Source: a virus. Taken from it: a stretch of DNA of 64,000 nucleotides. This document shows, piece after piece, positions 5,253 to 48,054 of the stretch (its first letter is position 1; each line of letters opens with the position of its first letter). The position numbers and the translations under genes are program-made. The stretch is taken from positions 24,336 through 88,335 of the IMG/VR virus record IMGVR_UViG_3300046703_000335; one strand, given 5' to 3'. The notes beneath the pieces are model-generated. The model saw only the letters and a program-made list of their open reading frames with translations. It did no database searches and had not been told where the DNA came from.

Positions 5253-5265
5253 ATTTATCCTTTAA

Positions 5266-6030: not shown

Positions 6031-6736
6031 GAAAAACCGTTGTACCTCTTAAGTATAATTCTTTTTTCTTATCCTCATAAATTTTTAAATATGGGGTACT
6101 TGAATTCAAAGGATCATGTATCAGCCAGTCATCTTCACTATGAAGTACATACTTTTTCTGTGTAAGAAGACACATAGTAGCATCGTCCCTACCATAAACA
6201 CCACCATGATTCGTCCATGGATGATCATTCAAGAACTGATGATGAAAAAGCATCATCCCACCAGCTACACTCCAAGGGGTATAAAATTTATGACCCCCAT
6301 GATCCTTCGCCGAGCAATTTATCCGAACAGGGTCATGTGCCCAGAATCGAGCGCTACAAAATCCCATAATATCATAATCAATATTATCACATTGACTTAT
6401 ATAATGTAACCAGGGTTTAAGTATAACCATATCGTTATCCATAGTTATAACAAGATCAGCTTGATACCCATAAGTTTTAAATAGCACATTAAGTATTGCA
6501 GCTTTTCCAATATTGCTCGCATAAGGTATTGAGTCAAGCACTATACCTATATCATTAAATAGGGTACAGTATCTGCTAATTATCTGAATGTCTTCTGGGG
6601 AAGCTTGATTTAATCCAACTGCAATGCGAATGTCATACACATCCCCTTGTGGAGTATTATTAAGAAGACCATTCAAGGTAACATCTAAAACTTCAGGTCT
6701 CTTATATGAGGGTATAAGAATAGCTAACTTTTTCAT
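6008..6736 (-). CDS. Glycosyltransferase-like protein
   Basis: LAILIPSYKRPEVLDVTLNGLL and TMDNDM (DxD-like). Confidence 0.4.
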   Translation of the reverse strand: MKKLAILIPSYKRPEVLDVTLNGLLNNTPQGDVYDIRIAVGLNQASPEDIQIISRYCTLFNDIGIVLDSIPYASNIGKAAILNVLFKTYGYQADLVITMDNDMVILKPWLHYISQCDNIDYDIMGFCSARFWAHDPVRINCSAKDHGGHKFYTPWSVAGGMMLFHHQFLNDHPWTNHGGVYGRDDATMCLLTQKKYVLHSEDDWLIHDPLNSSTPYLKIYEDKKKELYLRGTTVFHVGWDEV

Positions 6737-8721
6737 ATCCAGTGTCTACCTTCGCAATTATCCGGGAGATTTGGACTATAAAAAGGATCCACAAAATTAG
6801 ACAAACACCACTTCTCATCCATATATGCTATAGCTTTTATAAAATTTTCATCTTTAGCAGAATCATATCCTCGGGTATGAGATTCACGATGATATAATCG
6901 AGCAAAAGGAGTATAAACAATCGATTTTCCATTTTTTCTTAATTTAAGACAAAGATCAATATCGTTAAATGCTGCAGGAAGCTTTGGATCAAAACCACCC
7001 ACTGCCAGAAAATCACCTTTACGAACCAACATGCATGCCCCAGTAACCGCAGAAATATCTTGAGTAAGATGAGGTCTTGAAAAATACCCAGGATCCCAAT
7101 CCCACAACATCTTATGACTGTGCCCTGCAACTCCATTATTTCCTACAATAACTCCTGCATGCTGTATCCGGTGATCTAAGTATAGGAGTTTAGCCCCTAC
7201 CGCAGCTACTTCTGGTTGTATGAAATGTTGCACCATGTTATAAAGCCAATCAGGATGCATGATCTCTATATCATTATTTAAGAACAGTACAAATTCTGAA
7301 TTATCTCCACAAACTGAAACAGCATAATTATTTATCTTAGAGAAATTAAACTCTTTCTCATATTTCAGTACTCTTATTTTCTTATTAGAAGATAATTTTG
7401 ATAAATATTTATGAGTTTCATTTTTCGTACTGTTATTATCTACCAGTATAATTTCATAATTCTTGTATGATGTCAATTTAAAAGTTTTTAAGAGATTATT
7501 AAGAACATAAATCTCATCTTTGAATGGTACAATAATAGAAATTTTAGGTTCTTTAGACAAGATATACCGTACATCATAATGCCCCGGAAAATTCCCAGCA
7601 GCCACTATAGCTTTTCTATTTATACGCTTGAGATGGTCCTCTAACGCTCTTGCACCATTAAACCTGGCATTAGGCTTATTTACGATGCTACTTGCTGTAG
7701 AAGAGGGGGTAATGCGCCAATGATATAGGATCTTAGGGACATGAAATATATTCTTTGTTTGCTCAATGAATCTCAACGCCAAATCATAATCTTGAGAACC
7801 ATCAAACCCCGTCCTGATTCCCCCAATATTATCAATAATATTTTTTCGATAAACTGAGAAATGACACATATACATTGAGGATAGAAAAAGGTTATAGTTC
7901 CAGTCAGGTTTATAAAAAGGACCCACAAATTTACCATCTTCCAAGACCTTATCTTCATCAGTGTATATTAAATCTGCTTCAGGATGTTCCTTACACATTA
8001 AAGCGATGTGTAAGAGGGCATCTTTATCCAAAAGATCATCATGATCCAGAAACCCTACAAAGCTCCCTGTAGCCATAGATAAGGCATCATTAGTAGAACT
8101 AACAATACCCCTATTCTTGTTATTAAGTAATACCTTGATCTTATCACTTTTTATAGATTTTAGATAATCTGTTAAAACCGGGTCACAAGATCCATCATCA
8201 ACTATACACCATTCCCAATTTTCATATGTCTGATTAATAACACTTTCTGCGGTGCTTTTAAAGTATGCAAGGTCTGTCTTATATGTAGGTGTAATTATGC
8301 TAAATATTGGTGCGTTATTAAACTCATATATTGATGTACGTTCTCCTTCTATATATAGACAGGGGCCATTACTATTGACTTTAATATTAAAGCTCCCCTC
8401 AGAATTTTCTCTAACAAAACTGAGAGAAGTATAGATCATACAATCTTGTTTAAATGAATGATCAATGGAAAGAATTATTGGACTCTCTGCTATAACTTGA
8501 TTTGGAGTAATAGTATACTTACGATGAGTTTTTTCGATATACATATCTACCGTAAGTTGACCCATTATATTTCCAGTAGAACTAAAAAATAATCCTATGG
8601 AGTTTACTTTACCCCTACTTATAGGGATATTAAAAGCATAACTGCTTAGTGGAGTATACTGAGAATCCTTATCAATATTACTATAAAGAATAGGATCAAT
8701 TTTGGTTAAGATATATGACAT
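6733..8721 (-). CDS. Two-domain family 2 glycosyltransferase
   Basis: Two GT2 modules: FSIITPTYKTDLAYFKSTAESVINQ..IVDDGS and KISIIVPFKDEIYVLNNLLKTF..ILVDNNS. Confidence 0.6.
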   Translation of the reverse strand: MSYILTKIDPILYSNIDKDSQYTPLSSYAFNIPISRGKVNSIGLFFSSTGNIMGQLTVDMYIEKTHRKYTITPNQVIAESPIILSIDHSFKQDCMIYTSLSFVRENSEGSFNIKVNSNGPCLYIEGERTSIYEFNNAPIFSIITPTYKTDLAYFKSTAESVINQTYENWEWCIVDDGSCDPVLTDYLKSIKSDKIKVLLNNKNRGIVSSTNDALSMATGSFVGFLDHDDLLDKDALLHIALMCKEHPEADLIYTDEDKVLEDGKFVGPFYKPDWNYNLFLSSMYMCHFSVYRKNIIDNIGGIRTGFDGSQDYDLALRFIEQTKNIFHVPKILYHWRITPSSTASSIVNKPNARFNGARALEDHLKRINRKAIVAAGNFPGHYDVRYILSKEPKISIIVPFKDEIYVLNNLLKTFKLTSYKNYEIILVDNNSTKNETHKYLSKLSSNKKIRVLKYEKEFNFSKINNYAVSVCGDNSEFVLFLNNDIEIMHPDWLYNMVQHFIQPEVAAVGAKLLYLDHRIQHAGVIVGNNGVAGHSHKMLWDWDPGYFSRPHLTQDISAVTGACMLVRKGDFLAVGGFDPKLPAAFNDIDLCLKLRKNGKSIVYTPFARLYHRESHTRGYDSAKDENFIKAIAYMDEKWCLSNFVDPFYSPNLPDNCEGRHWI

Positions 8722-9305
8722 GTCTTAATGTGCTCCTCAAATAAAACAATCAGGTTATGCAAAACTTCTTGCTCATCTCCAACAGCCTGAAGACAGATTA
8801 TAGGTACTTTTATGTATTCCCTGGTTTTAGCATAAGCTTCTAAGAGCTCCCTTTGATTATCAATATCAAGAGTCTCATCTCTTTCCGAACATATTTCTAT
8901 AGGAGTAGTAAGATAAATATAAAGGTCAGGCTGAACAAAAAGCTTTTCACTGGAGTAAAGTTCTTTTAAAAATCTGAAACAGTTTGAAGAATATTTATAA
9001 GCATAAGATAACCCTGACCATAGGTATCTTTCGCAAATAATATTTTTTGCTGCGATAATACCCTGATGTCTTAAACGAGATTCAAAAAATATTCTTTCTC
9101 TACGGTATTCATCTATATATCCAGGAGAGTTTAAGAGTTTTGCTTCCTCTATAGAAAAAGAGGGCTCTTTCGTCCATATGAAGTCCCCAAAATGGGGGTC
9201 TATTTTTAAGAGCCCATCAACTGTACAGCTGTTAAGATACTCGGCGAACTTAACAGACAGAGTGCTTTTACCAGCACGATCGATGCCTTCAAAGGCGATA
9301 AACAT
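8706..9305 (-). CDS. tmk: Thymidylate kinase
   Basis: MFIAFEGIDRAGKST P-loop and overall dTMP kinase layout. Confidence 0.8.
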   Translation of the reverse strand: MFIAFEGIDRAGKSTLSVKFAEYLNSCTVDGLLKIDPHFGDFIWTKEPSFSIEEAKLLNSPGYIDEYRRERIFFESRLRHQGIIAAKNIICERYLWSGLSYAYKYSSNCFRFLKELYSSEKLFVQPDLYIYLTTPIEICSERDETLDIDNQRELLEAYAKTREYIKVPIICLQAVGDEQEVLHNLIVLFEEHIKTCHIS

Positions 9306-9352
9306 ATAAAACCTCTAATTTTATTTAAATGTTATATTAATATACATGAAGC

Positions 9353-10162
9353 CTATTTATTGGCAAGTTTATCATTAACATCTTTTTCCGTACATGCCCT
9401 TTTTATTTTACCCTCTATTCGATATTTCAAAAACAAAGTATCATATTCTGCTTTTTTTCTCAAAACATTGGGGACATAATCCTTTGTTTCTTTAACTAAA
9501 CCTTCCTTTTTATTTTTATAATAATATGCCTGCCAGGGCCCACCATTATAATCTGCCAGGACTACATCCCAGGAATGGTGCTGAGCATATAATACATCAA
9601 AAAGCTTTACTGCAAATTTTGTACTTATACCAATATTATACAATAATGAGTCTGTGTATTCCATCCCAAAGTGCCCGGCTAATAATCGACCAGTCGATGG
9701 CATGAATTGATTTAATCCTAAAGCTCCCATAGAACTTCGTGCAAGTTTAGTAAATTTGGATTCTATACACTGTGTGGCAAGAATCAGAAAGGGGTCTATA
9801 TATGAATAATTTTCACACTCCCTCAGGTTGGCTTCAGCGATTTGATAAGCATCATCAAGATTAATTTTGATTCCACTTTTTTTCCACTGTAAAACTATTT
9901 GATCCCGCATAAAAAGGATCAACTGAGATCTTCTTGATGACCAATCTATTGTAGAGAGCAGAAATTGATTTGTTTCTGTATGCAATATAAACTGTTCATC
10001 CTGGACTTTCTTAATATCTGTGATCTCCTTATTCAGGTTCTTTGATAGAATTAAGATAAGAAATGTTAATCCAATGGAAACAATTAAGAAAAATAGGGCA
10101 AGAGACCAACCTATAGTGGTTGAGCTTTTCTTACCTCTTTTCTCTGTGTTATCCTCGTCCAT
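9353..10162 (-). CDS. Membrane-anchored lytic transglycosylase (SLT domain)
   Basis: N-terminal TM helix. ATQCIESKF..ALGLNQFMPSTG resembles the SLT catalytic E..S and GLMQ motifs. Confidence 0.55.
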   Translation of the reverse strand: MDEDNTEKRGKKSSTTIGWSLALFFLIVSIGLTFLILILSKNLNKEITDIKKVQDEQFILHTETNQFLLSTIDWSSRRSQLILFMRDQIVLQWKKSGIKINLDDAYQIAEANLRECENYSYIDPFLILATQCIESKFTKLARSSMGALGLNQFMPSTGRLLAGHFGMEYTDSLLYNIGISTKFAVKLFDVLYAQHHSWDVVLADYNGGPWQAYYYKNKKEGLVKETKDYVPNVLRKKAEYDTLFLKYRIEGKIKRACTEKDVNDKLANK

Positions 10163-10184
10163 TGATACATCCTTTCGAATAGGT

Positions 10185-10454
10185 TCATAAAACTTCCTTA
10201 CGTATAAATTTTCCGTTTTCCCAATATTCTTTATGATTATTTTTAGGATCTATCAATGCTGGACCACCAACCCTATGCAAAACTCCGTGCTTAAACCACG
10301 CCTGATAACCGGTTCGTTTGTTTATTTCAGCAGGACCACCCTGACGATGTTTCTTTCCGTCAAAGATGTACACATCCACATCACCAGTAAGAGCTTGCTT
10401 ACCATTAGGCAACTTCATCATTTTCCCGATATTCATACCTATGGATATAAACAA
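10185..10454 (-). CDS. Hypothetical small protein
   Basis: ORF only. Contains a duplicated GGPA motif. Confidence 0.3.
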   Translation of the reverse strand: MFISIGMNIGKMMKLPNGKQALTGDVDVYIFDGKKHRQGGPAEINKRTGYQAWFKHGVLHRVGGPALIDPKNNHKEYWENGKFIRKEVL

Positions 10455-10463
10455 ACATTCCCC

Positions 10464-11225
10464 CTACATCTTATATCTTGGTTCAGGCTCATATGTATCT
10501 TGATTTACTATCTCATACGTAAATGGCCTACCATATCCAGCTTTACGTGGGTCAAGTGCTATCTGTTCAGGGGTATACCCCCAGTTAGTACATTGACCTG
10601 CATGATAACAAAAGATATTTTTACAGAATGCTACTTCCCAGCCATCTTCCCTCATCATCTTAGACACTAATCCATCATCCCCATAGGCTCCGAGTGCCTG
10701 ATCCATTCTTTTTATTACCCTGTCAATACTTTCTCTTCTTATCAATTTTAAGGTATTTCCTACAGCCCCTGCATAAACTACATCGTGTGATATACGGATA
10801 GGCATTTGTAATCCTTGTGGAGGTAACTGGGGAGCCAGCATCCCAATTTCTGGATGCTTATTCATTATGTCAATCATACAACTAAGCCAATCGGGGGATA
10901 GCTTTGGGGGATAGACATCATTATCGGTTACGCAGTAATATTCATCTGAGGATTCCACCATAGCATGGAATATTATTTTATTGTACCTGCAGCCGGTATT
11001 TCTACTATCAAGTACTACTGAATTAATAATTTTTGAATCTATATACTCATTTAAAATATCACGAGTATTTTTATCACTTCCATTGTCATATACATTTATT
11101 GAAAATGTTCCAGGAGTAGTTCTTTCTACAAGATATCCAATTGTTTTTTTTAAAAAATCTGATCTCAACCAACTAGTTATGTATATCTGAGTAGGTTTAC
11201 TTACCATTATATGTGTACTCCCCAA
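10464..11225 (-). CDS. Hypothetical protein (GT-A-like?)
   Basis: SINVYDNGSD and DNDV are weakly glycosyltransferase-like. Confidence 0.35.
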   Translation of the reverse strand: MGSTHIMVSKPTQIYITSWLRSDFLKKTIGYLVERTTPGTFSINVYDNGSDKNTRDILNEYIDSKIINSVVLDSRNTGCRYNKIIFHAMVESSDEYYCVTDNDVYPPKLSPDWLSCMIDIMNKHPEIGMLAPQLPPQGLQMPIRISHDVVYAGAVGNTLKLIRRESIDRVIKRMDQALGAYGDDGLVSKMMREDGWEVAFCKNIFCYHAGQCTNWGYTPEQIALDPRKAGYGRPFTYEIVNQDTYEPEPRYKM

Positions 11226-13424: not shown

Positions 13425-14222
13425 TTATAAATATTTGTCCAACCCTAAAATTGATTTTTTTTCTGATAAATCTTCTAATATTGGAACCTCTTCAACCCAT
13501 CGTTCAGTGTAACTTCGATCCTGTGATATAATTGGCATATCAAGATCAACTACCCACTTATTCCTGACAACACACCCAACCGGATAAGTAATCTTAAATG
13601 CTGATGTCCCTCTTTTATATGAAGTCTCTATATCATTCCAGTTGATACCCAATTGAAGCATTAACATATCCTGTTTTTGACTTCCATTTTTACCCATAAG
13701 TTGCTTATGTGAAAAATGTGCCATAGCCACTTGAGAGACTGAATTTTTTTCACAATCTCTTTCTCGCCAAATAAAATAGTTGGTAACTTCTTCCTTTGGG
13801 AGATTCCAGGCACGGGCGTCAAATATCGCAGGACCCTTTTTCTTGTATTGCTCTGGAAGATATGTCAAGCAAGCATGGTTAAACGCCGCAGTGCATATAG
13901 AAGCAGCCACGCTCTCAATCTTATTCGCCCTATTATCAAACCACGCCTCAGTACCTATACTTTGATAATCACACATTAATATGGATATCTCATCACTTTG
14001 ACAATATCCGAGTCTGGCACCCTCAATTTCACTACAGGTCTTTACCATAGCATAGTTCATGCACTTTTTTAGGTTACTATCAAACGGTCTAACTAAACCC
14101 CTTGTCCATGTATGAAATGCCTTTCCGTCAATTCTTAGCATAATGGGAATTCTGCGAACTAATAAACGAAATGCACGTTGCTCATAATCCTTCATGCGAT
14201 CCCCAAGAGAATCCTTACTCAT
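13425..14222 (-). CDS. Thg1-like protein (tRNA-His guanylyltransferase family, 3'-5' nucleotidyltransferase)
   Basis: N-terminus MKDYEQRAF..RIDGKAFHTW matches the Thg1/TLP signature (MKDYE .. R.DG.AFH). Confidence 0.7.
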   Translation of the reverse strand: MSKDSLGDRMKDYEQRAFRLLVRRIPIMLRIDGKAFHTWTRGLVRPFDSNLKKCMNYAMVKTCSEIEGARLGYCQSDEISILMCDYQSIGTEAWFDNRANKIESVAASICTAAFNHACLTYLPEQYKKKGPAIFDARAWNLPKEEVTNYFIWRERDCEKNSVSQVAMAHFSHKQLMGKNGSQKQDMLMLQLGINWNDIETSYKRGTSAFKITYPVGCVVRNKWVVDLDMPIISQDRSYTERWVEEVPILEDLSEKKSILGLDKYL

Positions 14223-19548: not shown

Positions 19549-20664
19549 TTAATTTTCTTCAAGAATTCTTTTTAATCGAGTAGAACACTCTACAGAATCC
19601 GGCAGGGTATTAAAGTTGGGACGAACTCTCCGGTGGATATTTTTCCATAGTTTAAGACTATTTCCCTTATGATAATACATAAGATCTGAGACAAGATCTG
19701 GATATCGCTCAGTTACCATAAAAAACAAAGTTTTATGGCTTATGTCCGCAGGAATATCTTTCATAACTTCCTCATAAGTTTCCTTAACCCTAATATAGTC
19801 ATTATGGTGGATATCGTATATCTGCCGATACAAGAGGTCTGTAAGCTCTCTAAACTCTTCGGGTACCTCTGCTATGAAACTACGGGGGATATCCGCTTTA
19901 TCGAAGTCCCAGGCACCCCAGAATGATAGTAGAGTCATATGTGATAGAATTCTATGAATTTTACAGTATTCTGATCCCTTAACCTTAATCTTAAGACCAT
20001 TGTGGAAAGTAATAACAAAACCCTCCTCAGTCGCCGGTAGAGTCTTACAATAAGCATATAACTCATCCAGGCTATTGAACTCTACAGCCTCTACCACAGT
20101 GGCTCCTATGCGCTTTCCTTCCTCTTTAAGGGAGGTGTAGGATATCTCTTCTCCGGTTTCATTATTGATGACACCTAAAAGTATCAAATCCTCTGTATCA
20201 CCATAGTCTATTACAATTTTATTTTCTGGATAGACCATCTCAAAAAGATATGTATGCCCTTTAAGCATTTCTGTTGACCTTATATGCTTCCGGAACCATA
20301 TAGTAGCCCACTGCGCCTGATCTGATAAGAAAGATCCCTTGGTCGCTATATAATCTTGACCTTCATATCTAAAGTAAATCGCTAAGCTACCGTCAATCTT
20401 CTTAAGGGAAATAAAAGGCTTCTTCGCCAAGTCACAAAGATCAATCTTACCCATAAGCTCGGAGGCATTAAAGAATTTCTTAAAGGAACGTGAAACCACC
20501 TCTCCAGTGATCCTATTAAATATGATACCCCGTGCAGCCATAGTGATATCATCCCAATGCCCGTCATATTGACATTCCCGTGAATAGCAAAAAAGAACAA
20601 GATCATTCCACTCAGTATGTCTGACATAAGGATGGTCATAAAATTTCTTAATATCAAAAGTCAT
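19549..20664 (-). CDS. ATP-dependent RNA ligase (Rnl-type KxDG nucleotidyltransferase)
   Basis: KKIDGSLAI motif I (KxDG). N-terminal segment and size resemble the T4 Rnl / PF09414 family. A separate NAD-dependent DNA ligase is present in this window. Confidence 0.5.
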   Translation of the reverse strand: MTFDIKKFYDHPYVRHTEWNDLVLFCYSRECQYDGHWDDITMAARGIIFNRITGEVVSRSFKKFFNASELMGKIDLCDLAKKPFISLKKIDGSLAIYFRYEGQDYIATKGSFLSDQAQWATIWFRKHIRSTEMLKGHTYLFEMVYPENKIVIDYGDTEDLILLGVINNETGEEISYTSLKEEGKRIGATVVEAVEFNSLDELYAYCKTLPATEEGFVITFHNGLKIKVKGSEYCKIHRILSHMTLLSFWGAWDFDKADIPRSFIAEVPEEFRELTDLLYRQIYDIHHNDYIRVKETYEEVMKDIPADISHKTLFFMVTERYPDLVSDLMYYHKGNSLKLWKNIHRRVRPNFNTLPDSVECSTRLKRILEEN

Positions 20665-23202: not shown

Positions 23203-23862
23203 TTACGATATAAGAAAATCCCAACCTTTAACAAGCCATTCTACATAAAGATCATCTTGTTTACCATACCAACCACAAGCATAGGGGGAATTAGCTTCTA
23301 CCAAAGCCATTTCTCCAGAATCCAACAATCCGAAATCCACTGCTCCACAATAACCTTTAGGAATATCTATATCTAATTCGGGAGCATCTGGAGTATTTAG
23401 CTCATCACCAGAATACCATTCTCCTGTTAGAATCTTTCCATCAGCGATATAGTATCTCCACTCATTTATAAAGGTAACGATATCTGAACACCAATAGGGG
23501 CCTCGTTTTTTCTTTCTATAGCCCCCTACTGTAATAAAACCATTAAATCTTTTATGACGATCTGCTGGCTTAATAAATACGCCCCTATTTTGGGGCCATA
23601 AAGTCGATTTCCATACTTTTCTATAAAGGTGGTCTTTTAAAAAATCAGGATAATAATCTGGTATAGTCTTTTCACTGGGTAAGAACTTTTCGCACCAATC
23701 CACCCGACCAGAAGGAATATATCCTTCTGGTCTATCTCCCAGTCTATTACAAAGTTTATAGGGGATCCTTTTTAAGATACAGTAGCTTATGATGGCTTTC
23801 TCTTCATTAGCACAGGAACCATAAACTAAATGTGATTGTAATGCAAATCCTTTAATATCCAT
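23203..23862 (-). CDS. ATP-grasp-like protein
   Basis: The C-terminal half (FIKPADRH .. GYCGAVDFGLLDSGEMALVEANSPY) resembles ATP-grasp carboxylate-amine ligases. Confidence 0.45.
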   Translation of the reverse strand: MDIKGFALQSHLVYGSCANEEKAIISYCILKRIPYKLCNRLGDRPEGYIPSGRVDWCEKFLPSEKTIPDYYPDFLKDHLYRKVWKSTLWPQNRGVFIKPADRHKRFNGFITVGGYRKKKRGPYWCSDIVTFINEWRYYIADGKILTGEWYSGDELNTPDAPELDIDIPKGYCGAVDFGLLDSGEMALVEANSPYACGWYGKQDDLYVEWLVKGWDFLIS

Positions 23863-23926
23863 TTTTCAAAAAATCCCTAATAATGTGGACTACCCGCTCA
23901 CTCTATTTTTTAAGGGGAGCATGCCT

Positions 23927-24409
23927 TCATAGTTCGATTACCCATATATCTGGATACTTTAATAAGACACCGGTAATCTCTGGAAATTCATTTATCAAAA
24001 GAGGGATATCGATAAGTTTTCCAGTATATACCGAACGAATCAACATACCAAGTGTTCTAATCTTATTTTTTACAACATCATCCCATTTACTTGAATAGTA
24101 CTCATACTCTTTTTCTGAAAAAAGAGCATCAGATATATGAATCTTATAGATACTATCTATCATAGTCACTACTCTATTAATACCTGAAGATTGTTGACAT
24201 TGATTAGTCATGAAAGATCTTGAAGTACTAATATTTAGTGATCTTATAGTGTCTATTCTGTCCATAGTACTTAATGCAGAATAATCAAAAAATTTAAGCT
24301 CAGCATGCTTTTTCAGAATATTATATATTTTAAATTCTGTTAAATGAGGACTATTCTGCCCAAATACTAAGGCTACCGCATGGTAGTTAAACTCATCATT
24401 GTTATCCAT
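23927..24409 (-). CDS. Hypothetical protein
   Basis: ORF only. Confidence 0.3.
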   Translation of the reverse strand: MDNNDEFNYHAVALVFGQNSPHLTEFKIYNILKKHAELKFFDYSALSTMDRIDTIRSLNISTSRSFMTNQCQQSSGINRVVTMIDSIYKIHISDALFSEKEYEYYSSKWDDVVKNKIRTLGMLIRSVYTGKLIDIPLLINEFPEITGVLLKYPDIWVIEL

Positions 24410-24416
24410 GCTATAC

Positions 24417-24668
24417 CTACTTTAATTCCAGGTACATTTTATTACACGTAGCACAATAAGAAGCAGGTACATTTCCACCTTTAAATCCCCAATTTCTTAA
24501 AAGATTTTCAATCTTCATTACTCTTTTTCCACCACAAAGAGCTTCACGGGAATATTCTCCTGAAACAGATAGATAATAGTGCCACATACCACTCATACTA
24601 TCCACAACTTTTAATAAATGTTTTTTTTGATTCTTCTGTTTCATCTTTTTTTCTTTCGTTTCATGCAT
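24417..24668 (-). CDS. Hypothetical small protein
   Basis: ORF only. Confidence 0.25.
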   Translation of the reverse strand: MHETKEKKMKQKNQKKHLLKVVDSMSGMWHYYLSVSGEYSREALCGGKRVMKIENLLRNWGFKGGNVPASYCATCNKMYLELK

Positions 24669-24928
24669 ATCCCAAAATTTTTTTGCTTTCTAACCCATTT
24701 AACCCATTTTTGGACACTCGGTTGAGATCTAAGCAGATTTATATTATAGTAGAGATCTCTCAGCTCATTATTAGTAAAAAGCATGTGAATTTGATCTCCA
24801 CAATCGATGCAAACCAGCTCAGTATCCCTACCTCCCTTTGCTACCGGAGTAGTATGATGTTTTTCCTGATAACGTGTATCTGGGATCTCTCTACCGCACA
24901 GGGAACAGTATATTTCTTCTTTACGCAT
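24641..24928 (-). CDS. Small HNH endonuclease
   Basis: CSLCGREIP..EKHHTTPVAKGG..CIDCGDQIH (HNH with two CxxC pairs). Confidence 0.45.
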   Translation of the reverse strand: MRKEEIYCSLCGREIPDTRYQEKHHTTPVAKGGRDTELVCIDCGDQIHMLFTNNELRDLYYNINLLRSQPSVQKWVKWVRKQKNFGICMKRKKKR

Positions 24929-25204
24929 AAATCATTTAGGGATATCTTCAACTTTTTTATACCAGAATTCAAACCCCGTGACTTGAAGACCATGCTCTCT
25001 AGCTATTTCGATCAGATCATCCTCTGTGGCATCATCTTCAACTTCCATTTCCTCTGTATCAGCTTCGCTCATACCATTACATCGAGCACCAACGATTATT
25101 TTCAAGATTTTTTCTCCTAAAAAATATAAATGAGTACATCTATAATTAATATACTGTTATAAAACATGGGACAAAAGTGCTATCTATAAAATACTGAGGA
25201 TTTA

Positions 25205-25837
25205 TTACGAGAGATTAAGAGTCTTCTTAATACCTATCTGATAGTTATCTATGATCCAATCAAACTGACCTCGATAGATATTTAAGAATGCATCGATAGC
25301 AATGCGCGGGTGAGTGAATCGTAACTTTGGGTTATCTTTATTAAATTCTGCATGACTTATGTAGTGCCATGGATCTGTGGTCTCCATTTCATAATCATCA
25401 ATAAGCATTATCCCACCAACTTTTAAAAGTTTCCAGGATAATATCAAATCCTCAAGGAGATTACAGGCATTATGATCCCCATCCACATAAATAAAATCAA
25501 ATCTAAAGATATTATCCTTTATAAGATCGATAAGAACTTTTCCGGAAGGTTCCCTATAAAATATAATGTCTCCTAAATGCTGTCTTAGGTTATATTCTCC
25601 ATTTTTAGCGATATAAGGATCAATACAATGTAACATCCCCTTACTTCTGTGGATACTTTCAATACTTAAGATATTATCAATCAACCAACAGGAAGTTCTT
25701 CCCTCAAAAACTCCTATTTCTAAGAAATTCAACTGAGATTCTTCTGTATTACTAAAAAGCTGTTTGATATACGCAAAATTAGTATGATGATCGGCATTCC
25801 AAAAATTTATTTTTTTTGTAAACTTATACTTATTCAT
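25205..25837 (-). CDS. Class I SAM-dependent O-methyltransferase-like (TylF/MycF type)
   Basis: LEIGVFEGRTSCWL, IYVDGDH. Confidence 0.55.
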   Translation of the reverse strand: MNKYKFTKKINFWNADHHTNFAYIKQLFSNTEESQLNFLEIGVFEGRTSCWLIDNILSIESIHRSKGMLHCIDPYIAKNGEYNLRQHLGDIIFYREPSGKVLIDLIKDNIFRFDFIYVDGDHNACNLLEDLILSWKLLKVGGIMLIDDYEMETTDPWHYISHAEFNKDNPKLRFTHPRIAIDAFLNIYRGQFDWIIDNYQIGIKKTLNLS

Positions 25838-26312
25838 TTATTATAAATTCTCTCATTTTTGGTAAGTATTTAATTACAAAGGTATCTGTATAGTACCATT
25901 TATCTTGAAGACACCTAAGCATATAAATACTTACTTTAAATGTATAAAAATTATAAGTGTCAAGTATCGAATCCAATAGAAACTGATGAGTCTGAGAAAC
26001 TTTACAAATATCTAACTCAATTAGTCTATCTCGAGTCCAACTTATTAAGTGCTCAGATTTAAACTTATTTGCTAATGTCAGAAACATCGTCTTATCTTCA
26101 GCTAATAATTCGTATTCATCATCTTTATACATATTAGAATACATATAGAGATACCATCGATATGTCCCGGGAACCAGATCCGGAGGAATATACCCTGGAA
26201 CGTTATCATCCAATGAGCAATTCAGGTGATCAACTGATAATGCTAATAATCTATTTAAATATTCTGGATTAATCATTTCCACAGCCCTTAGGCTTGTATA
26301 TGCCTTTTTCAC
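25830..26312 (-). CDS. Hypothetical protein
   Basis: ORF only. Confidence 0.3.
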   Translation of the reverse strand: MKKAYTSLRAVEMINPEYLNRLLALSVDHLNCSLDDNVPGYIPPDLVPGTYRWYLYMYSNMYKDDEYELLAEDKTMFLTLANKFKSEHLISWTRDRLIELDICKVSQTHQFLLDSILDTYNFYTFKVSIYMLRCLQDKWYYTDTFVIKYLPKMREFIINE

Positions 26313-27144
26313 GAACTATTTTGTCATAATAATATACTGCGGGGACTCCTACTACTTCTACTCCAGTTTTAGTACGCTTGACAGTAGAATTATGGTTAAA
26401 TTCATTCCTGGCTATATTACCTATTATTTTCATATCCTCAAAGCATGCAAAGACATTCCCACCTAAAGTATGCCCCCCAATAAGTATGGTCTTATATCCT
26501 CGAGTGCATGTACAAAAATCATTACACTTTTTATATTCAAAGTCTACAAGATACCAATCTTCTCCATCATAATCCTTGACTTCATGGAAATCCTTGCCAC
26601 GATCATACCCTTTAAAATCCTGAATCTTAAAAGGTATACCAAATGCCTTCCATTTACGTTTATTTTCTTTTATTACTTCCTTATCATTATGCACCAGTAG
26701 CTCTTTAACATATACGGGGACGCCATTATCATGAAGGAAGTGTACGTTGTCTTCGTACATTTTTACTAAACTTGGAATATGACCCATCATTTTTCGATGA
26801 AAAGTAAATCCTACACGGTGTATCCTATCTTTATAGGGTAATAACCGTGCATAATTTTCACGACTCTGAAGGCCATTTGTGAGAAAATCAAAGCGTTCTA
26901 TTGAAGTCGATCGAATAACTGTGCAGATAGTATTAATATTTGTGGAGATGAAAGGCTCACCACCGTGAAAATGCATCAAAATATCTTCAGCGGGTAAAAG
27001 ATGTGTGTCCCTGAATAGTTTATATTGGTCAATTGAGAAAGATTGATGCTTTGTGTAATTAGAATAGAAACGTTCATGATGGAAGCAATAACTGCAACGG
27101 AGATTACAGTCAAAAAAAATTGGGTATGCAATAAATAGCTTCAA
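26269..27144 (-). CDS. Radical SAM enzyme (QueE-like cluster motif)
   Basis: CNLRCSYC (CxxxCxxC) at N-terminus and an HFHGGEPF SAM-binding motif. Confidence 0.65.
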   Translation of the reverse strand: MKLFIAYPIFFDCNLRCSYCFHHERFYSNYTKHQSFSIDQYKLFRDTHLLPAEDILMHFHGGEPFISTNINTICTVIRSTSIERFDFLTNGLQSRENYARLLPYKDRIHRVGFTFHRKMMGHIPSLVKMYEDNVHFLHDNGVPVYVKELLVHNDKEVIKENKRKWKAFGIPFKIQDFKGYDRGKDFHEVKDYDGEDWYLVDFEYKKCNDFCTCTRGYKTILIGGHTLGGNVFACFEDMKIIGNIARNEFNHNSTVKRTKTGVEVVGVPAVYYYDKIVREKGIYKPKGCGND

Positions 27145-27185
27145 AGTATATTATCTTTTATTTATATTATATGTTAATTTACAAA

Positions 27186-27586
27186 TGGAGGAGAGGGGAG
27201 TTGAACCCCTGTGTCAAGTATGATCCCTATTAATCTCTACATGCTTAGTTTAATTTGCACTACCCCTCTGTAAATATCAATTAAACAAAATTTTTAACAG
27301 AGTGCATTAAGTAATTTCGGTCCCCTTCTCTATTATGCTTTTCGGGTACCCTACTTCGTGATCTTTTAAGAGATCGGATCCCACGATTGTCCGATACTCT
27401 TTGCTACCTTTAATTAGGCAGCGATTGAGCTTGCAACACCTAAACTGATATTATCAGCAAAGGCGAGAGCAAACTTAACAGCATAATCTTTTGCAATTAT
27501 ACTTTAACGGATGATTTACGAGGCCAACCGTTATCCTCAACATGCAATTAATACTTCACCTACCTGATCGAAACCAGTACTCCCCC
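27186..27586 (-). ncRNA. ssrA: tmRNA (ssrA), about 401 nt, one-piece
   Basis: Minus-strand 5' end GGGGGAGTACTGGTTTCGATCAGG resembles the E. coli tmRNA 5' end. An internal CGGTTGGCCTCGTAAA block matches the PK1 region. The 3' end ..CACAGGGGTTCAACTCCCCTCTCCTCC-A forms a T-arm plus acceptor. The acceptor pairs 7/7 with the 5' GGGGGAG, including a G3-U70 pair and an A discriminator, which are alanine identity elements. Candidate tag ORF: GCA AAA GAT ... GCT GCC TAA. Confidence 0.8.
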
Positions 27587-27698
27587 AAAACGTTCAAAGA
27601 ACACTTTTAATATACATTCATGAAAAACAGGACGCCCAATTATTTATAAATTAACTTCCTAATAGAATGTTAATTCCCTGCTTCTCTCAACCCATACC

Positions 27699-27782
27699 CG
27701 CGTGTATGTGACACACTTATGGATCTTTTTATAAATACTACATTCAATCGGTACATCCCCGCGTGTATGTGGCACACACCAA
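27699..27782. repeat. Two ~20-bp direct repeats (CCGCGTGTATGTGRCACAC) 64 bp apart, upstream of tmRNA
   Basis: cccgcgtgtatgtgacacac at 27699-27718 and cccgcgtgtatgtggcacac at 27763-27782. Each has an internal GTGT..ACAC dyad. Confidence 0.5.
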
Positions 27783-28055
27783 CCTATGGTATAGTTATTC
27801 TGTAAAAACATATATGCAATGTGTTTTACTCTCACACAAATAATGGTGCGCCCAATATGTCAATGAGCATGTGTCTTATATACGCGAGACATTTCACGCT
27901 TCAACACCCCAGTTACCCGGCAGCTCAGCGCGCCCACCCCGGCAAACCTGCCGGTGAGTGTATTTATCTATGCAACACATTAAGTGCTGCATTAATGGCT
28001 ATATCATTTGTAGATTTTCATTTCAGACATGTAATCTTATGTGTAATCCCGATAT

Positions 28056-28730
28056 TTAATTAACTCTACATATTTTAAAGTCCTTCAAGCTTATAAGATA
28101 ATTTTCTTTTACACCAGTATCAACAAATCTTATTAAAGATTCTGTACCGACAATTACAGCCAAAAGTGCAGTATTGCGTGCAAGGGGATACTCACAAACA
28201 TCTATCCCTGTACCTTTTTTAGGTACACGATATCTCTCGTTCCAGGTAACTTCTGCGCAATCCTCTGATAAGCCTATGTGCATACAATCGATCTTATTAA
28301 CTAAGCAATGATCCATAACTATTTTACGACTCTCCGGATTATCAAAGCCATCAATTACTATCGAATCAGCTTTTAAAAATTTTCGAACATTGGAAGCCTC
28401 AAGTTTTTTATCGATAGGATCTATAGTAACTTTCATAACATTGAAGAGATGTGACCGGATAGCTGCAACTTTCAGTTGACCTACATCCCGACTATTCCAA
28501 ATTTGAGTATTTCGGTTATGTTCCTCTACTCTATCAAAATCGATTACAGTCATTCTCTGAAAACCCTGACGTACCAGATTATCTGCGAGGTTCGAACCGA
28601 TCGCACCTACCCCGCATAACGTGATATGCTGTGCAGCTATCTTCTTTAAAAGATCTTCCCCACGGTAAGCTCCCTCATGTACAAAAGTTTTCATTATCTC
28701 ACCTTTTTTATATTTTCTATGACATTGCAT
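28056..28730 (-). CDS. ThiF/MoeB/E1-like adenylyltransferase
   Basis: TLCGVGAIGSNLADNL Rossmann motif, VIDFDRVEEHNRNTQ, C-terminal IDVCEY cysteine. Confidence 0.7.
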   Translation of the reverse strand: MQCHRKYKKGEIMKTFVHEGAYRGEDLLKKIAAQHITLCGVGAIGSNLADNLVRQGFQRMTVIDFDRVEEHNRNTQIWNSRDVGQLKVAAIRSHLFNVMKVTIDPIDKKLEASNVRKFLKADSIVIDGFDNPESRKIVMDHCLVNKIDCMHIGLSEDCAEVTWNERYRVPKKGTGIDVCEYPLARNTALLAVIVGTESLIRFVDTGVKENYLISLKDFKICRVN

Positions 28731-29263
28731 GCAATTAAAAAATCACTAAGATAATCCAAGTTATACCTTGAAACTGCATATGTGGTCCCATTATTGTCTT
28801 GTTTTAATAATACTACCCAATGACTGAATGTCAATTCCATCCCAGGCAGAGCAGAGATATAGGGTCCCGATATAACATCCTGTTCCCAATTTGAATTTTC
28901 TTTCAATATCTTAAGAGTATGATGAATGAGATTCAGCCATTTTCTTTCCTCAAGAAGATCTTCCAAAAAAACATGAGGGTATCCTTCCCAATCATCAATA
29001 GGCTCCAATTCATATACAAAAAAGTCAGTCTCATATCCTGTTCGGGGTATTCTAACAGTATTGCTTATAGCTCGATTACCAGACAGCATTTCATTGTAAA
29101 TATTACGAATTTTAGGATGCCATTCCTTGTTTATATACAAAGGCAATTCCAATTTTTGTAAGTTACTCAGAAAGTATAAATCTTCCACCATCTGGTAACT
29201 ATTAATTCTCGTCAGATGTCTTGTTAAATTTTCAAAATCTATACTATGAGAATATGTAAACAT
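28694..29263 (-). CDS. Hypothetical protein, overlaps and is probably co-transcribed with the E1-like gene
   Basis: ORF overlapping ThiF by 37 bp. No E2-like HPN-Cys motif found. Confidence 0.3.
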   Translation of the reverse strand: MFTYSHSIDFENLTRHLTRINSYQMVEDLYFLSNLQKLELPLYINKEWHPKIRNIYNEMLSGNRAISNTVRIPRTGYETDFFVYELEPIDDWEGYPHVFLEDLLEERKWLNLIHHTLKILKENSNWEQDVISGPYISALPGMELTFSHWVVLLKQDNNGTTYAVSRYNLDYLSDFLIACNVIENIKKVR

Positions 29264-38902: not shown

Positions 38903-39100
38903 TTCTTTTATGAAGATCGTAAGAAAAATCAATAAGAAGTAGAGCACCTTATGGGTGGAGCAGTTGGGTTACTTTGGGATACCCACTTATGGTATCCAAG
39001 AAACTTTTTTAATGCTGATGTTTTGTAACTTTTTCTCATATCCGTGCTATCCTAAAATATTTAAAAAATTACGCAGAAGTTAGGGATGCTAATTTTTTGG

Positions 39101-39173
39101 CTTCTAATGATGGACTTGAACCATCGACGCATTTCTTATAAGGAAATTGCCCTACCAACTGGGCTAATTAGAA
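39101..39173 (-). tRNA. tRNA, anticodon UAU (Ile, AUA codon). CCA encoded at 39098-39100.
   Basis: Minus strand TTCTAAT-TA-GCCC-AGTTGGTA-GGGC-A-ATTTC-CTTATAA-GAAAT-GCGTC-GATGG-TTCAAGT-CCATC-ATTAGAA-G-CCA. All stems pair perfectly. Confidence 0.75.
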
Positions 39174-39536
39174 AATGTAAGCAACCAAAGTAATTGCGTA
39201 ATTTTTATTATTGTTTGTTTCAATCCGCGCTTTTCAGCGACTATATAAAAATGAGCTAATATAAGAATCTCTACCTAAGTCGTTCGTACTATATGATGAC
39301 CAGATACCCATACTGGGCAGTGATCATCAAGTTTTTTTTACCCAAAAAAAATGTAAGTCCAAACTATAATGGTAAAAATTCTATTAATTCGTTTGTTCGT
39401 TTCAATCCACGCTTTTCAGCGACTGTACAAAAGTAAAAAAGTTGAAACTACAGAAGTCGTGCATGCTAGTCTGAGGGATTTGAACCCCCTACCTATTGAT
39501 TAGAAGTCAATTGCTCTACCAAATGAGCTAATGTAA
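39174..39536 (-). repeat. Degenerate tandem array of ~175-bp units, each starting (minus strand) with CTTACATT
   Basis: AATGTAAG on the plus strand at 39174-39181, 39346-39353 and 39529-39536. Conserved AGTCGCTGAAAAGCGYGGATTGAAAC segments at about 39214-39247 and 39394-39430, each carrying a CGCT-GAAA-AGCG tetraloop hairpin. Confidence 0.45.
39464..39536 (-). tRNA. tRNA-Arg(UCU)-like element whose 5' acceptor strand does not pair. Positions 1-8 are replaced by the CTTACATT unit motif. Possible pseudogene or repair substrate.
   Basis: Good D-arm GCTC-ATTTGGTA-GAGC, anticodon arm ATTGA-CTTCTAA-TCAAT, T-arm GGGGG-TTCAAAT-CCCTC. The 3' acceptor AGACTAG has no complementary 5' strand. Confidence 0.45.
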
Positions 39537-39679
39537 GCCTTCACTGTAATTGTAGTTTCAACCAAGTACCCTATTCATCAGGGTTACATCTTAATAATAC
39601 TAAATAATTTTATATTATGCAAATACTATTTTAAAATGAAATCCAATGGATATATAATATAGATCGTATTAAAATATTT

Positions 39680-46101: not shown

Positions 46102-48054
46102 TTAAAAAAGTTTTTCGGATACAATCGTCAAACCTTCTTTTTTTTCTATTTTTTTAATTTCTTCTTTTTCAGGGAGTCCACCGATAAATTTCAGGAACTC
46201 ATCCTCATTAATGATCTTAACTCCAAGCTTAGCAGCCTTCTCATTCTTTTTGGACCCCGTATCTTTATCATTTGTGACAAGGTAAGTCAAGCCCTCTGAT
46301 ACTGTATCCTTTGCTGTACCACCTCTATCAACCACTAATGCCTGAAATTCTTTTCTTCCCATGGAGGTCAGTGACCCAGTAACACAAAAAGAGAAGCCGG
46401 TCAGAATTCCCTTTTTCTTTTCCTTAATTTTAATAACTTTAAGCAGATCTTCCGCCATATCTTTAATCTCAGCTATCCCCTCACAAACTGTTCGAGCAGA
46501 AGTCTCTGCAAAACCAGATAACTTTTCCAGATCTGAAGGTTTTATAGAAATAATTCTATCCCAAGAACCAAACTTTTCTACTAAAATTTCAGCGGTAGAT
46601 TTAGAACAAGTAGGGATCCCCAAAGCAGTGATAAATTTTTCCAGATAAAGTTCAGAGGTATCTTTCATAGTTTCAAAGAAGGATAATATGGTTTTTTCCC
46701 CAATCCCTTCCACAGCAATGAAATCATCTGTGGTCAGTTTATAAAGATCTGATACCATTCGAATCTTATTAAGATCCCACAGCCTCTCTACAAATTTATC
46801 TGAAAAGCCTTTCATGCCCAGAGTTTGTATCCAGTATACAATTCTATTCACATCTCTTTCTTTACAAACCAAATTTCGACACCAAATGTTTACGCCATCA
46901 TCTTCCAAAGGACCACCACATGAAGGACATTTAGTAGGTTTCTCAAAGGGATCTCCTTCAGTAATGACTTCGGTTACCTGAGGGATAATGTCCCCCTTTT
47001 TTTCAATAACGACTTCTGCTCCAATCCCTATACCCATCTCTATCATGTAAGAGAAGTTATGTACAGAAGCTTTTTTGATGGTACTCCCCATAAGTTCAGC
47101 ATCTTCAAGCATTACAACAGGCGTAAATTTACCCGTACGACCTATCTGAAGTTTAAGACCTATGATCGTCGTAATAATTTTTTCTGAATCAAATTTTAGA
47201 GCTACCTGACCTTCAGGACGATTCTTCTTTACTCCTAATTTTTCCTGAAGATTAAGATCATTAAGTTTTAAAACTAAGCCATCGATATCATATGAAAATT
47301 TATTACGTTGATCATCCCGAATAGATTTGTAGATAGCCAATATTTCTTCAATTGAGTGACAGATAAAAGTTTCTACTGTTGTAAATCCTAATTTCTTAAG
47401 TATCTCAATCTTCTCAGTCTCTTTGCTCACCTTAGCATTGATGTCATAAGCAATGACACGGATATACTTACTATGTGTTCCATCTAATCTTCGACTTATA
47501 CCACTGGCAGCATTTCTGGCATTCTTATAATGCCCGCCACTTTCTTCTTGTATAAGATCATAATCCTTTTTTGAAAGAACACCCTCTCCACGGCATACCA
47601 CAGCATTTTTTATTGGAATGATCCCCGGTAGTTGCCTGAACAGTCTGGCATTCTGGTATATGTCCGCTCCTACTTGTCCGTCTCCTCTTGTTAGACTACT
47701 CTCAAGCCTACCTTGTGAATAGCACATTTCTAACGAAAACCCATCAATTTTATGTTGAAGAACAAATTCAAGAGCAGTAGTTTTAAGCTCCAGGGTAACT
47801 CTTGTATACCACTCTACTATAGCATTTATAGAGGATACCTTATTTTGAGATCCCATAGCTATTGTATGCTTCTTTTTAGGCCATAAGCTACACTCACTAT
47901 GCCCCACTTTATTCAATCTTGGGTGATCTGGTGGTAGATGCCTATAAATAAAATCCTTGAAGGTATCATATTCAGGGTCATCAATTAAAGATTGCTTATT
48001 ATAGTAGGCATCATCATATTCGTCTAATAATTTTAATTTATCTTGGATATTCAT
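46102..48054 (-). CDS. ligA: NAD-dependent DNA ligase
   Basis: KIDGFS adenylation motif, CPSCGGPL..CRNLVC zinc finger, HhH region, C-terminal BRCT (GFSFCVTGSL). Confidence 0.85.
   Translation of the reverse strand: MNIQDKLKLLDEYDDAYYNKQSLIDDPEYDTFKDFIYRHLPPDHPRLNKVGHSECSLWPKKKHTIAMGSQNKVSSINAIVEWYTRVTLELKTTALEFVLQHKIDGFSLEMCYSQGRLESSLTRGDGQVGADIYQNARLFRQLPGIIPIKNAVVCRGEGVLSKKDYDLIQEESGGHYKNARNAASGISRRLDGTHSKYIRVIAYDINAKVSKETEKIEILKKLGFTTVETFICHSIEEILAIYKSIRDDQRNKFSYDIDGLVLKLNDLNLQEKLGVKKNRPEGQVALKFDSEKIITTIIGLKLQIGRTGKFTPVVMLEDAELMGSTIKKASVHNFSYMIEMGIGIGAEVVIEKKGDIIPQVTEVITEGDPFEKPTKCPSCGGPLEDDGVNIWCRNLVCKERDVNRIVYWIQTLGMKGFSDKFVERLWDLNKIRMVSDLYKLTTDDFIAVEGIGEKTILSFFETMKDTSELYLEKFITALGIPTCSKSTAEILVEKFGSWDRIISIKPSDLEKLSGFAETSARTVCEGIAEIKDMAEDLLKVIKIKEKKKGILTGFSFCVTGSLTSMGRKEFQALVVDRGGTAKDTVSEGLTYLVTNDKDTGSKKNEKAAKLGVKIINEDEFLKFIGGLPEKEEIKKIEKKEGLTIVSEKLF

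Follow-up and report, generated by a model that had tools for sequence, protein, structure and literature searches.

A complete one-piece tmRNA gene with a long, conserved tag on a probable large uncultured phage

Results

A tmRNA gene between radical-SAM and ThiF/E1-like genes

The DNA analyzed here, referred to as the window, comprises 64,000 nucleotides (nt) of the IMG/VR virus record IMGVR_UViG_3300046703_000335 (positions 24,336 to 88,335), and on its minus strand it carries a gene for transfer-messenger RNA (tmRNA, ssrA) located in a gap between a radical-SAM gene and a ThiF/E1-like gene. A standard one-piece tmRNA was called by ARAGORN at 27186..27586 (-), with the tag AKDYAVKFALAFADNISLGVASSIAA followed by a stop codon. 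The Rfam covariance model RF00023 matched 27183..27586 (-) with 133 bits (E 8.4e-52) over model positions 1-374 of 374, far above its gathering score of 47 bits. An earlier note, made from the letters of the sequence alone, had proposed a complete one-piece minus-strand tmRNA; the ARAGORN call coincides exactly with the extent proposed there, and the covariance model agrees. The gene is complete and of the standard form, measures 401 nt to the discriminator, and is further supported by covariation across seven sequences, as described below. Two other forms were considered and rejected: the model of permuted (two-piece) tmRNAs, RF04321, reached 20.5 bits (E 0.08), below its threshold of 47, and an intron form of the window's own gene was dismissed, there being no RF00028 match in the window and the T-loop being continuous.

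The gap extends from the start of the radical-SAM gene (27144) to the stop of the ThiF/E1-like gene (28056). It had been described as free of open reading frames (ORFs) over about 0.9 kb; it measures 911 nt, and no ORF of 60 or more amino acids (aa) was found on its minus strand. Both flanking genes are also on the minus strand and serve as syntenic anchors, and Pfam confirmed their earlier reading as radical-SAM and E1-like. The downstream gene (26269..27144, Radical_SAM, PF04055), whose start codon lies 41 nt past the 3' end of the tmRNA, has 74 homologues in metagenomes, and the upstream gene (28056..28730) matches ThiF (PF00899, 1e-27).

Parts of the tmRNA

The tRNA-like domain could be read directly from the sequence. 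The 5' strand of the acceptor stem, GGGGGAG (27580..27586), contains G3 of the G3.U70 pair, and the 3' strand, CUCCUCC (27187-27193), is followed by the discriminator A at 27186, so that this half of the stem with its discriminator occupies 27186..27193. The pairs are G1-C, G2-C, G3.U, G4-C, G5-C, A6-U, and G7-C. This pairing between 27580-27586 and 27187-27193, like the G3-U70 pair and the A discriminator, had been predicted in the earlier note; it is invariant in all homologues, and G3.U is found in all six full-length sequences. The G3.U70 pair is the identity element for alanine. Adjoining the acceptor stem is the T-arm AGGGG-UUCAACU-CCCCU (27194..27210; direct reading and RNAalifold), with a 5-bp stem and a 7-nt loop, UUCAACU, that fits the family pattern UUCNANN.

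Pseudoknot 1 (PK1; 27505..27539) was placed by the Rfam alignment and consists of stem 1, UGAGG/CCUCG, and stem 2, UAACGG/CCGUUA. The mRNA-like domain (27414..27494; ARAGORN and direct reading) begins with the resume codon GCA and contains the 26 codons of AKDYAVKFALAFADNISLGVASSIAA and the stop codon UAA; the frame thus runs GCA...GCC UAA, and the predicted ending ...SSIAA before UAA was found both in the ARAGORN call and by direct reading. The stop codon is located at the stem-loop junction of the helix 5 hairpin, GCUGCC-UAAUUAA-AGGUAGC (27403..27422; RNAalifold and direct reading).

Compared with E. coli SsrA and the RF00023 family, the gene shares the 7-bp acceptor stem with G3.U70 and the A discriminator, the T-arm, the long helix 2, a PK1 with the GGCCUCGUAAA loop common to E. 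coli, the GCA resume codon, the tag end of two alanines, and the UAA within helix 5, so that the proposed likeness to E. coli in the 5' end, PK1, and T-arm holds. It differs from bacterial SsrA in being located on a phage-like element, in having a tag of 26 codons as opposed to the typical 10 aa, and in not encoding CCA. In addition, the 5' domain reads GGUUUCGAU, whereas the bacterial standard tmRNA has GGAUUCGAC, and the PK3 region contains a 40-nt insertion relative to the model.

Conservation of fold and tag in homologous tmRNAs

The contigs around the 74 metagenomic homologues of the radical-SAM protein were fetched, and six homologous tmRNAs were found at the same position, between ThiF/E1 and radical SAM, on metagenomic contigs of up to 281,798 bp. 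They are located in the gaps of L081 (sequence identical to L082 and L087), L083 (on the 281,798-bp contig), L090 (on a 92,786-bp contig), L092 (identical to L093), L086 (whose 5' end is cut off by the contig end), and L078, which contains an intron and is the same as L088 over the 668-nt stretch of tmRNA plus intron that was compared. Their identity to the tmRNA of the window is 71-93%.

An alignment of the seven tmRNA versions, six of them full-length (L086 being truncated at the 5' end), was folded by RNAalifold into a consensus that has the canonical layout of a tmRNA and 94 pairs, 34 of which show compensatory changes. Covariation was counted over 72 canonical pairs, leaving out the helices predicted inside the tag ORF, and compared with slid controls in which the 3' partners were moved by 1-3 columns. 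Over the 72 pairs, 95.5% of the cells are paired, as against 38-52% in the slid controls, and 31 pairs show double-sided changes, as against 2-8 in the controls; none of 500 shuffles reached any of the observed covariation measures. The acceptor pairs 1-7 are 97.6% paired with two compensatory pairs, and the T-arm stem (consensus helix 10) is 100% paired, also with two. Stem 1 of PK1 (consensus helix 5) is likewise 100% paired; stem 2, which was mis-registered by MAFFT and was therefore checked separately, is paired in all six full-length sequences, with compensatory changes at three positions. The long helix 2 (consensus helices 2-4) comprises 23 pairs, of which 14 have changed in a compensatory manner, and family helix 5 (consensus helix 6), which holds the stop codon, is 100% paired with two compensatory pairs. 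Helices 7-9 in the PK2-PK4 region are 88-95% paired with ten compensatory pairs, a count that concerns the helices and not the pseudoknot pairings.

In each of the seven versions, the tag frame remains open. The window and L078 share the tag AKDYAVKFALAFADNISLGVASSIAA, while the tags are VKNYAVKFALAFANNVNIGVASSIAA in L081, VKNYAVSFAVAFAENISLGVASTIAA in L086, ANNYAVKFAFAFANNVNIGVASAIVA in L090, AKNTAVDFALAFADNVRLSVAKFAIAA in L083, and AKNTAVDFALAFADNVRLSVANLAVA in L092. They are 26-27 codons long, have the lineage-wide motif A-V-x-F-A-[LFV]-A-F-A, and end in -IAA, -IVA, or -AVA. Variable columns fall mostly on the third codon position (11/8/21 for positions 1/2/3), the ratio of nonsynonymous to synonymous substitutions (dN/dS) among the homologues is 0.20-0.36 (NG86), and the frames of the window and L078 show three differences, all of them synonymous. 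The third-position bias, the dN/dS values, and the covariation together indicate that purifying selection acts on the RNA fold as well as on the peptide, which argues against the gene being a relic or a chance match.

In L078 and L088, position 7 of the T-loop (UUCGAU|U) is the site of a group I intron of 227 nt (RF00028, 96 bits). In L078:1059-2393 (L088:9300-9967, reversed), the 5' exon ends in ...GGGGUUCGAU, the intron occupies 1446-1672, and the 3' exon begins with UCCCCUCUCCUCCA; a U.G pair is present at the 5' splice site (P1 UUCGAU/GUCGAG), the intron ends in G, and splicing in silico gives back the 7-nt T-loop. The split L078 gene was missed by ARAGORN. An ORF for a DUF559 endonuclease (L078 1749-2393) lies outside the intron, just past the 3' end of the tmRNA, an arrangement reminiscent of ORF-less introns that are paired with a free-standing homing endonuclease. 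On the 282-kb contig of L083, a gene for an IS605-type TnpB (HTH_OrfB_IS605, OrfB_IS605, and Cas12f1-like TNB; region 2949-4532) begins at 3318 and shares ~34 nt with the 3' end of the tmRNA (2949-3351); the transposon therefore either abuts that end or has inserted there.

Synteny and the non-coding gap

Independent contigs that derive from different samples repeat the order ThiF - gap - radical SAM - small ORF - methyltransferase, and the identity of the tmRNAs (0.71-0.93) broadly parallels that of the flanking proteins. The wider cluster at 23203-28730, with the ThiF/E1-like, radical-SAM, small-ORF, and SAM-methyltransferase genes and extending to an ATP-grasp gene (R2K clade), keeps its synteny in all relatives, those with the tmRNA and those lacking it alike, and may represent a pathway of peptide or nucleotide modification. 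Among the ThiF relatives in IMG/VR (L001-L005), no tmRNA was found within 6 kb.

A conserved leader motif, GTGTTCTTTGAA (27593..27604, minus strand), is located 7-18 nt upstream of the mature 5' end and is nearly invariant in the window, L078, L081, and L083. It was not found as a recurring motif elsewhere in the window, and it may be a candidate promoter or processing element specific to this gene. The rest of the upstream gap (27605..28055, minus strand) is non-coding, with no ORF and no conservation in the relatives, and yielded no Rfam match at E<=1. It contains a direct repeat of 24 nt (27693-27716 and 27754-27777; 92% identical, 61-nt spacing) and, in a genome of ~34% GC, a patch of 72% GC near 27905-27955; the z-score of its RNA fold is -2.0. 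At the place of 27605-28055, relatives hold a small ORF or a sigma-70 gene. Sigma-70-family genes with regions 2, 3, and 4 were found between ThiF and radical SAM at L089:4517-5809 and L090:2824-4122, and in L090 this gene is directly upstream of the tmRNA.

Gene content and relatives of the element

Among the ORFs of at least 150 aa in the window, 55 of 56 are on the minus strand, and they are tightly packed. The replication genes encode a 1282-aa PolA-type polymerase, a DnaB-like helicase, an SF2 helicase, and an NAD-dependent ligase (LigA). Further genes encode an IS605-type transposase, a homing-endonuclease-like protein, a ParB-like protein, a uracil-DNA glycosylase (UDG), an AAA ATPase, an HNH endonuclease, and a protein with a DnaG zinc ribbon. 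Two genes are related to RNA repair: that at 13425-14222 encodes a Thg1-like protein of the tRNA-His guanylyltransferase / 3'-5' polymerase family (PF04446, 6e-29, plus Thg1C), and that at 19549-20664 a T4 Rnl1-type RNA ligase (PF09511, phrog_562). A tRNA-Ile(TAT) gene at 39098-39173 encodes its CCA. The presence of a tRNA gene, an Rnl1 ligase, and a Thg1-like enzyme suggests a toolkit for translation maintenance and RNA repair.

Among deposited sequences, the polymerase is matched best by a 485-kb uncultured phage (28% identity). L001 (131 kb), which is classified as viral in IMG/VR, is syntenic over six genes at 27-57% identity, and other relatives are on contigs of 239-282 kb. LigA belongs to a clade known from metagenomes only, whose members, more than 100 in number, show 46-91% identity and lie on contigs of up to 469,535 bp; beyond this clade, identity falls sharply to <=40%. 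To judge from these matches and the gene content, the window probably represents part of a large, probably 'huge', uncultured phage.

Searches of deposited phages gave no match to the DNA at 26000-29000 nor to the radical-SAM protein. When the tmRNA alone was compared with deposited phages (E<=1), only 65 nt of its 3' end matched, to Enterococcus phage tmRNAs with E = 0.4. The 24-mer of the tmRNA 3' end had no match in IMG/VR, and a lineage-specific 29-mer had none in IMG/VR and three in metagenome contigs. A 15-mer from PK1 matched 72 loci in IMG/VR, almost all by chance; only L052 holds a phage tmRNA, and it is unrelated. This tmRNA (L052:11054-11461, on a 124.8-kb contig) is full-length, scores 107 bits with RF00023, has 52% GC, and encodes its CCA; it adjoins a tRNA-Met gene, and the tag called by ARAGORN, AHLQNARVSTTSG, looks doubtful. 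For two proteins of the window (genes at 26269-27144 and 46102-48054), the only homologues named in NCBI, P0028 and P0107, are from a metagenome-assembled genome (MAG) labeled 'Candidatus Altiarchaeales archaeon', into which contigs of a related phage were probably misbinned.

Comparison with known phage and intron-containing tmRNAs

Phage tmRNAs have been described in Bxz1-like mycobacteriophages and Bacillus phage G (PMC4131195) and in huge phages, some of which carry SmpB as well (PMC7162821), and 402 of 18,146 phage genomes were found to have a tmRNA, two-piece forms with riboswitches included (PMC9004378). As in these reports, the gene is a complete accessory gene of a large phage that lies beside tRNA and other translation-related genes. 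It differs from them in showing no detectable sequence relationship and in belonging to a lineage known only from metagenomes, and, while some huge phages carry SmpB, none was seen in this window. Phage-borne derivatives of ssrA also include the two-piece (permuted) tmRNA of Melnitz and the pelagimyophages (PMC9004378) and the mini-tmRNA of mycobacteriophage DS6A, which consists of the tRNA-like domain (TLD) only (PMC4131195). In contrast to the former, the tmRNA of the window is not permuted and no riboswitch was found; in contrast to the latter, it has a full mRNA-like domain. A group I intron in the T-loop has been reported for 883 bacterial tmRNA sequences (PMC11915505), and that of L078/L088 is located at the same canonical site, although its carrier here is a phage. 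The tmRNA of the window is unlike these intron forms in having no intron.

Relation to bacterial tmRNAs

We scanned bacterial genomes with the 5'-domain/PK1 signature of the lineage, a search that is biased by its pattern and that matched at least 120 contigs. These were overwhelmingly from the Planctomycetes-Verrucomicrobia-Chlamydiae (PVC) superphylum, with additional ones from Fibrobacterota, Poribacteria, and Nitrospirota. The tmRNAs of Chlamydiota, Omnitrophota, Lentisphaerota, Kiritimatiellota, and Verrucomicrobiota share the signature GGTTTCGA...GCATGNNGAGG...GGCCTCNTAAA; those of Chlamydiota and Omnitrophota, like that of the phage, are ~400 nt long and have long tags (20-33 aa), and the Victivallales tag AKNNTVQF... 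resembles the phage AKNTAVDF.... Among the matches listed, the best profile scores were those of Victivallales and Kiritimatiellota (best summed nhmmer score 109 bits), followed by four long-tag bacterial entries (three 'uncultured bacterium' and one of the Parachlamydiaceae), and the best global identity, 0.65-0.69, was to ~400-nt long-tag tmRNAs of Omnitrophota and Chlamydiota. Identity this low argues against a recent capture.

These similarities give a weak hint at a PVC donor or host of the phage tmRNA, weak because the scan is pattern-biased and rests on those at least 120 contigs. The LigA homologues gave no answer as to the host, their sole named cellular neighbor being the probably misbinned Altiarchaeales-labeled MAG. 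To our knowledge, large dsDNA phages are essentially undescribed for hosts of the PVC superphylum. A fuller proposal would combine a PVC host, a phage-specific role of the 26-27-codon tag, and an Rnl1/Thg1-like counter-defense module directed against RNA-cleaving immunity; the tag (A-K-N/D-x-A-V-x-F-A-L-A-F-A...) would then be an adaptor or degron tuned to host proteases, or a selective mark on host proteins. We consider this combination fairly unlikely.

Discussion

Function and proposed mechanism

With its identity, fold, and conservation evident, its tag under selection, and its location syntenic and accessory, the gene is very probably a functional, standard one-piece ssrA of an uncultured large, probably 'huge', phage, inherited vertically in a sub-clade. 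Since all the standard parts of a tmRNA are present, the simplest reading is ordinary trans-translation relying on host factors. According to this proposal, the tmRNA would be transcribed together with the neighboring minus-strand genes, its 5' end would be matured by the host RNase P, and its 3' end would be trimmed right after the discriminator A, after which CCA would be added by the CCA-adding enzyme of the host, which is needed because CCA is not encoded. Host alanyl-tRNA synthetase would charge the molecule with alanine through G3.U70, and the charged tmRNA would enter stalled ribosomes with EF-Tu and SmpB, either from the host or encoded elsewhere in the phage. Translation would resume at GCA, so that alanine and 26 residues ending in ...SSIAA (the full appended tag being AAKDYAVKFALAFADNISLGVASSIAA) are added before the stop at UAA; the ribosome would be freed and the product marked for proteolysis of the ClpXP/Lon type. 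The benefit to the phage would be a supply of usable ribosomes during infection, when host mRNA decay or RNA-cleaving defenses produce non-stop complexes.

Several observations weigh against this reading. The 3' end does not encode CCA, the 3' flank being UUUGUAAA; encoding of CCA differs within the lineage, as it is present in L086 and L092 (CCUCCACCA) and missing in the window, L078, L081, L083, and L090 (CCUCCA-UUU or -AUU). PK2-PK4 have low posterior probability in the RF00023 alignment, in which the 40-nt insertion falls in the PK3 region. No SmpB was detected in the 64-kb window by tblastn with E. coli SmpB as query, a search whose positive control, made on bacterial loci, succeeded; function therefore relies on a compatible SmpB of the host or a copy elsewhere in the genome. 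Neither a sigma-70 promoter nor an intrinsic terminator was called at the ends of the tmRNA gene. L001 and L089 (238,919-bp contig) keep the synteny and have no tmRNA at this locus, which makes the tmRNA an accessory, dispensable gene. Finally, the 64 kb of the window yielded no gene for a capsid, portal, or terminase protein, so that the assignment to a phage is indirect.

Alternative explanations

Some of these observations would suit a decaying, non-functional relic of a captured host ssrA, for which one may cite the loss of the tmRNA in L001 and L089, the missing CCA, and the weak Rfam alignment in PK2-PK4. Such a relic would hardly be expected to show 31 compensatory pairs and 95.5% pairing, an invariant G3.U70, and a tag frame open in all seven versions at a dN/dS of 0.2-0.36, nor would it be expected that the self-splicing intron tolerated by one relative sits at the canonical T-loop site and restores a 7-nt T-loop when spliced in silico. 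The covariation in particular disfavors a pseudogene, and we hold this explanation to be very improbable. The same holds for the possibility that the gene is the host's own ssrA beside a prophage or genomic island, or an attP-associated copy that restores ssrA after integration. tmRNA genes are classic integration sites of islands and prophages (PMC11915505, PMC9004378), and yet this gene is full-length and not a 3' fragment, lies midway in a co-oriented 64-kb block with no integrase found nearby, and is flanked on both sides by homologous phage-type genes on six independent contigs. Its embedding in this block, its divergence roughly in step with the flanking phage genes, and the fact that no bacterial tmRNA among the matches listed is more than 69% identical strongly disfavor a host ssrA at a prophage junction, which was rejected; the chance of this origin is very small.

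The earlier note had taken the tmRNA to be virus-encoded, a part of its reading that is well supported by the co-oriented block of phage-type genes, the PHROG matches, the viral syntenic contig, and the relatives on contigs of 239-282 kb and that stays indirect given the missing capsid and terminase genes in the window. On another view, the element would be a large plasmid or some other mobile element, or else a fragment from a cell that was misbinned, and its tmRNA a second ssrA allele belonging to a cell or a plasmid. The lack of capsid, portal, and terminase genes in the window, the absence of matches to deposited phages for both the DNA and the radical-SAM protein, and the ParB-like and IS605 genes are compatible with this view, and large plasmids carrying translation genes have been reported (PMC7162821). 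Against it stand the T4 Rnl1-type ligase, the homing endonuclease, the SLT-lysin, and the phage-type replication genes of the window, the tightly packed genes on one strand, the classification of the syntenic contig as viral in IMG/VR, the 485-kb uncultured phage as best deposited match of the polymerase, and an Hcp/tail-tube-like protein on the contig of a relative. A non-viral element thus appears quite improbable.

A further possibility accepts a functional RNA and questions its role: rather than being a plain rescue helper, it could compete for SmpB and stalled ribosomes so as to subvert or sense the host, or its tag could be phage-specific, for instance as a signal for a phage adaptor or protease, as a means of recycling selected host proteins, or as a mark that does not lead to degradation. 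In favor of this, the tag has 26-27 codons, while tags of 10 aa are the most frequent (PMC11915505), its motif is kept across the lineage under purifying selection, no closely similar tag was found among the bacterial tmRNA matches listed, and the window yielded no SmpB. Sensing and selective tagging have both been proposed as roles (PMC7162821, PMC9004378), and a TLD-only phage tmRNA inhibits the host tmRNA (PMC4131195). On the other hand, the tags end in a canonical hydrophobic, degron-like manner (-IAA, -IVA, or -AVA), every element of ordinary trans-translation is intact and covarying, and bacterial PVC-group tmRNAs also have long tags, so that tag length alone is not specific to phages. 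We regard such a role as unlikely, and a standard ssrA working in ordinary trans-translation as the best explanation.

Significance

The gene adds a well-supported and evolutionarily constrained case to the small set of phage tmRNAs, from a clade of very large phages that is known only from metagenomes and that reference phage collections do not include. As a phage accessory gene it is of a known and ordinary type and leaves current understanding unchanged; its tag is unusually long and conserved. That the phage might manipulate host trans-translation through its tmRNA, as the earlier note suggested, would be a reasonable hypothesis, and the phenomenon itself is less novel than was implied there, having already been documented (PMC4131195, PMC7162821, PMC9004378). 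As a rare host-derived RNA marker, the tmRNA hints at a host of the PVC superphylum for the clade. The conserved long tag provides a concrete peptide for metaproteome searches, and the tRNA-repair enzymes that accompany the tmRNA support the idea of large phages being equipped with toolkits that sustain translation under RNA-targeting defense.

Other features of the window

Polysaccharide-modification genes form a block at 1171-11225, with a pyruvyl transferase (1171-2415), a 662-aa glycosyltransferase (6733-8721), and a GT2 glycosyltransferase (10464-11225); beside them are genes for a thymidylate kinase (8706-9305) and an SLT transglycosylase (lysin; 9353-10162). The PolA-type polymerase (52217-56065) matches the PHROG polymerase only in residues ~20-586 and an endonuclease family in residues 720-838, and it may be a fusion or contain an inserted endonuclease or an intein-like segment. 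A tRNA-like core is located at 39472-39531 (-), 300 nt from the tRNA-Ile gene, and matches the Rfam tRNA model with 51 bits over model positions 7-64; its anticodon loop reads TCT/Arg, it has no proper acceptor stem, and it was not called by ARAGORN. This core is enclosed (39441-39561) by a perfect 12-bp inverted repeat, GTTGAAACTACA / TGTAGTTTCAAC, which is followed by TTTTTT.

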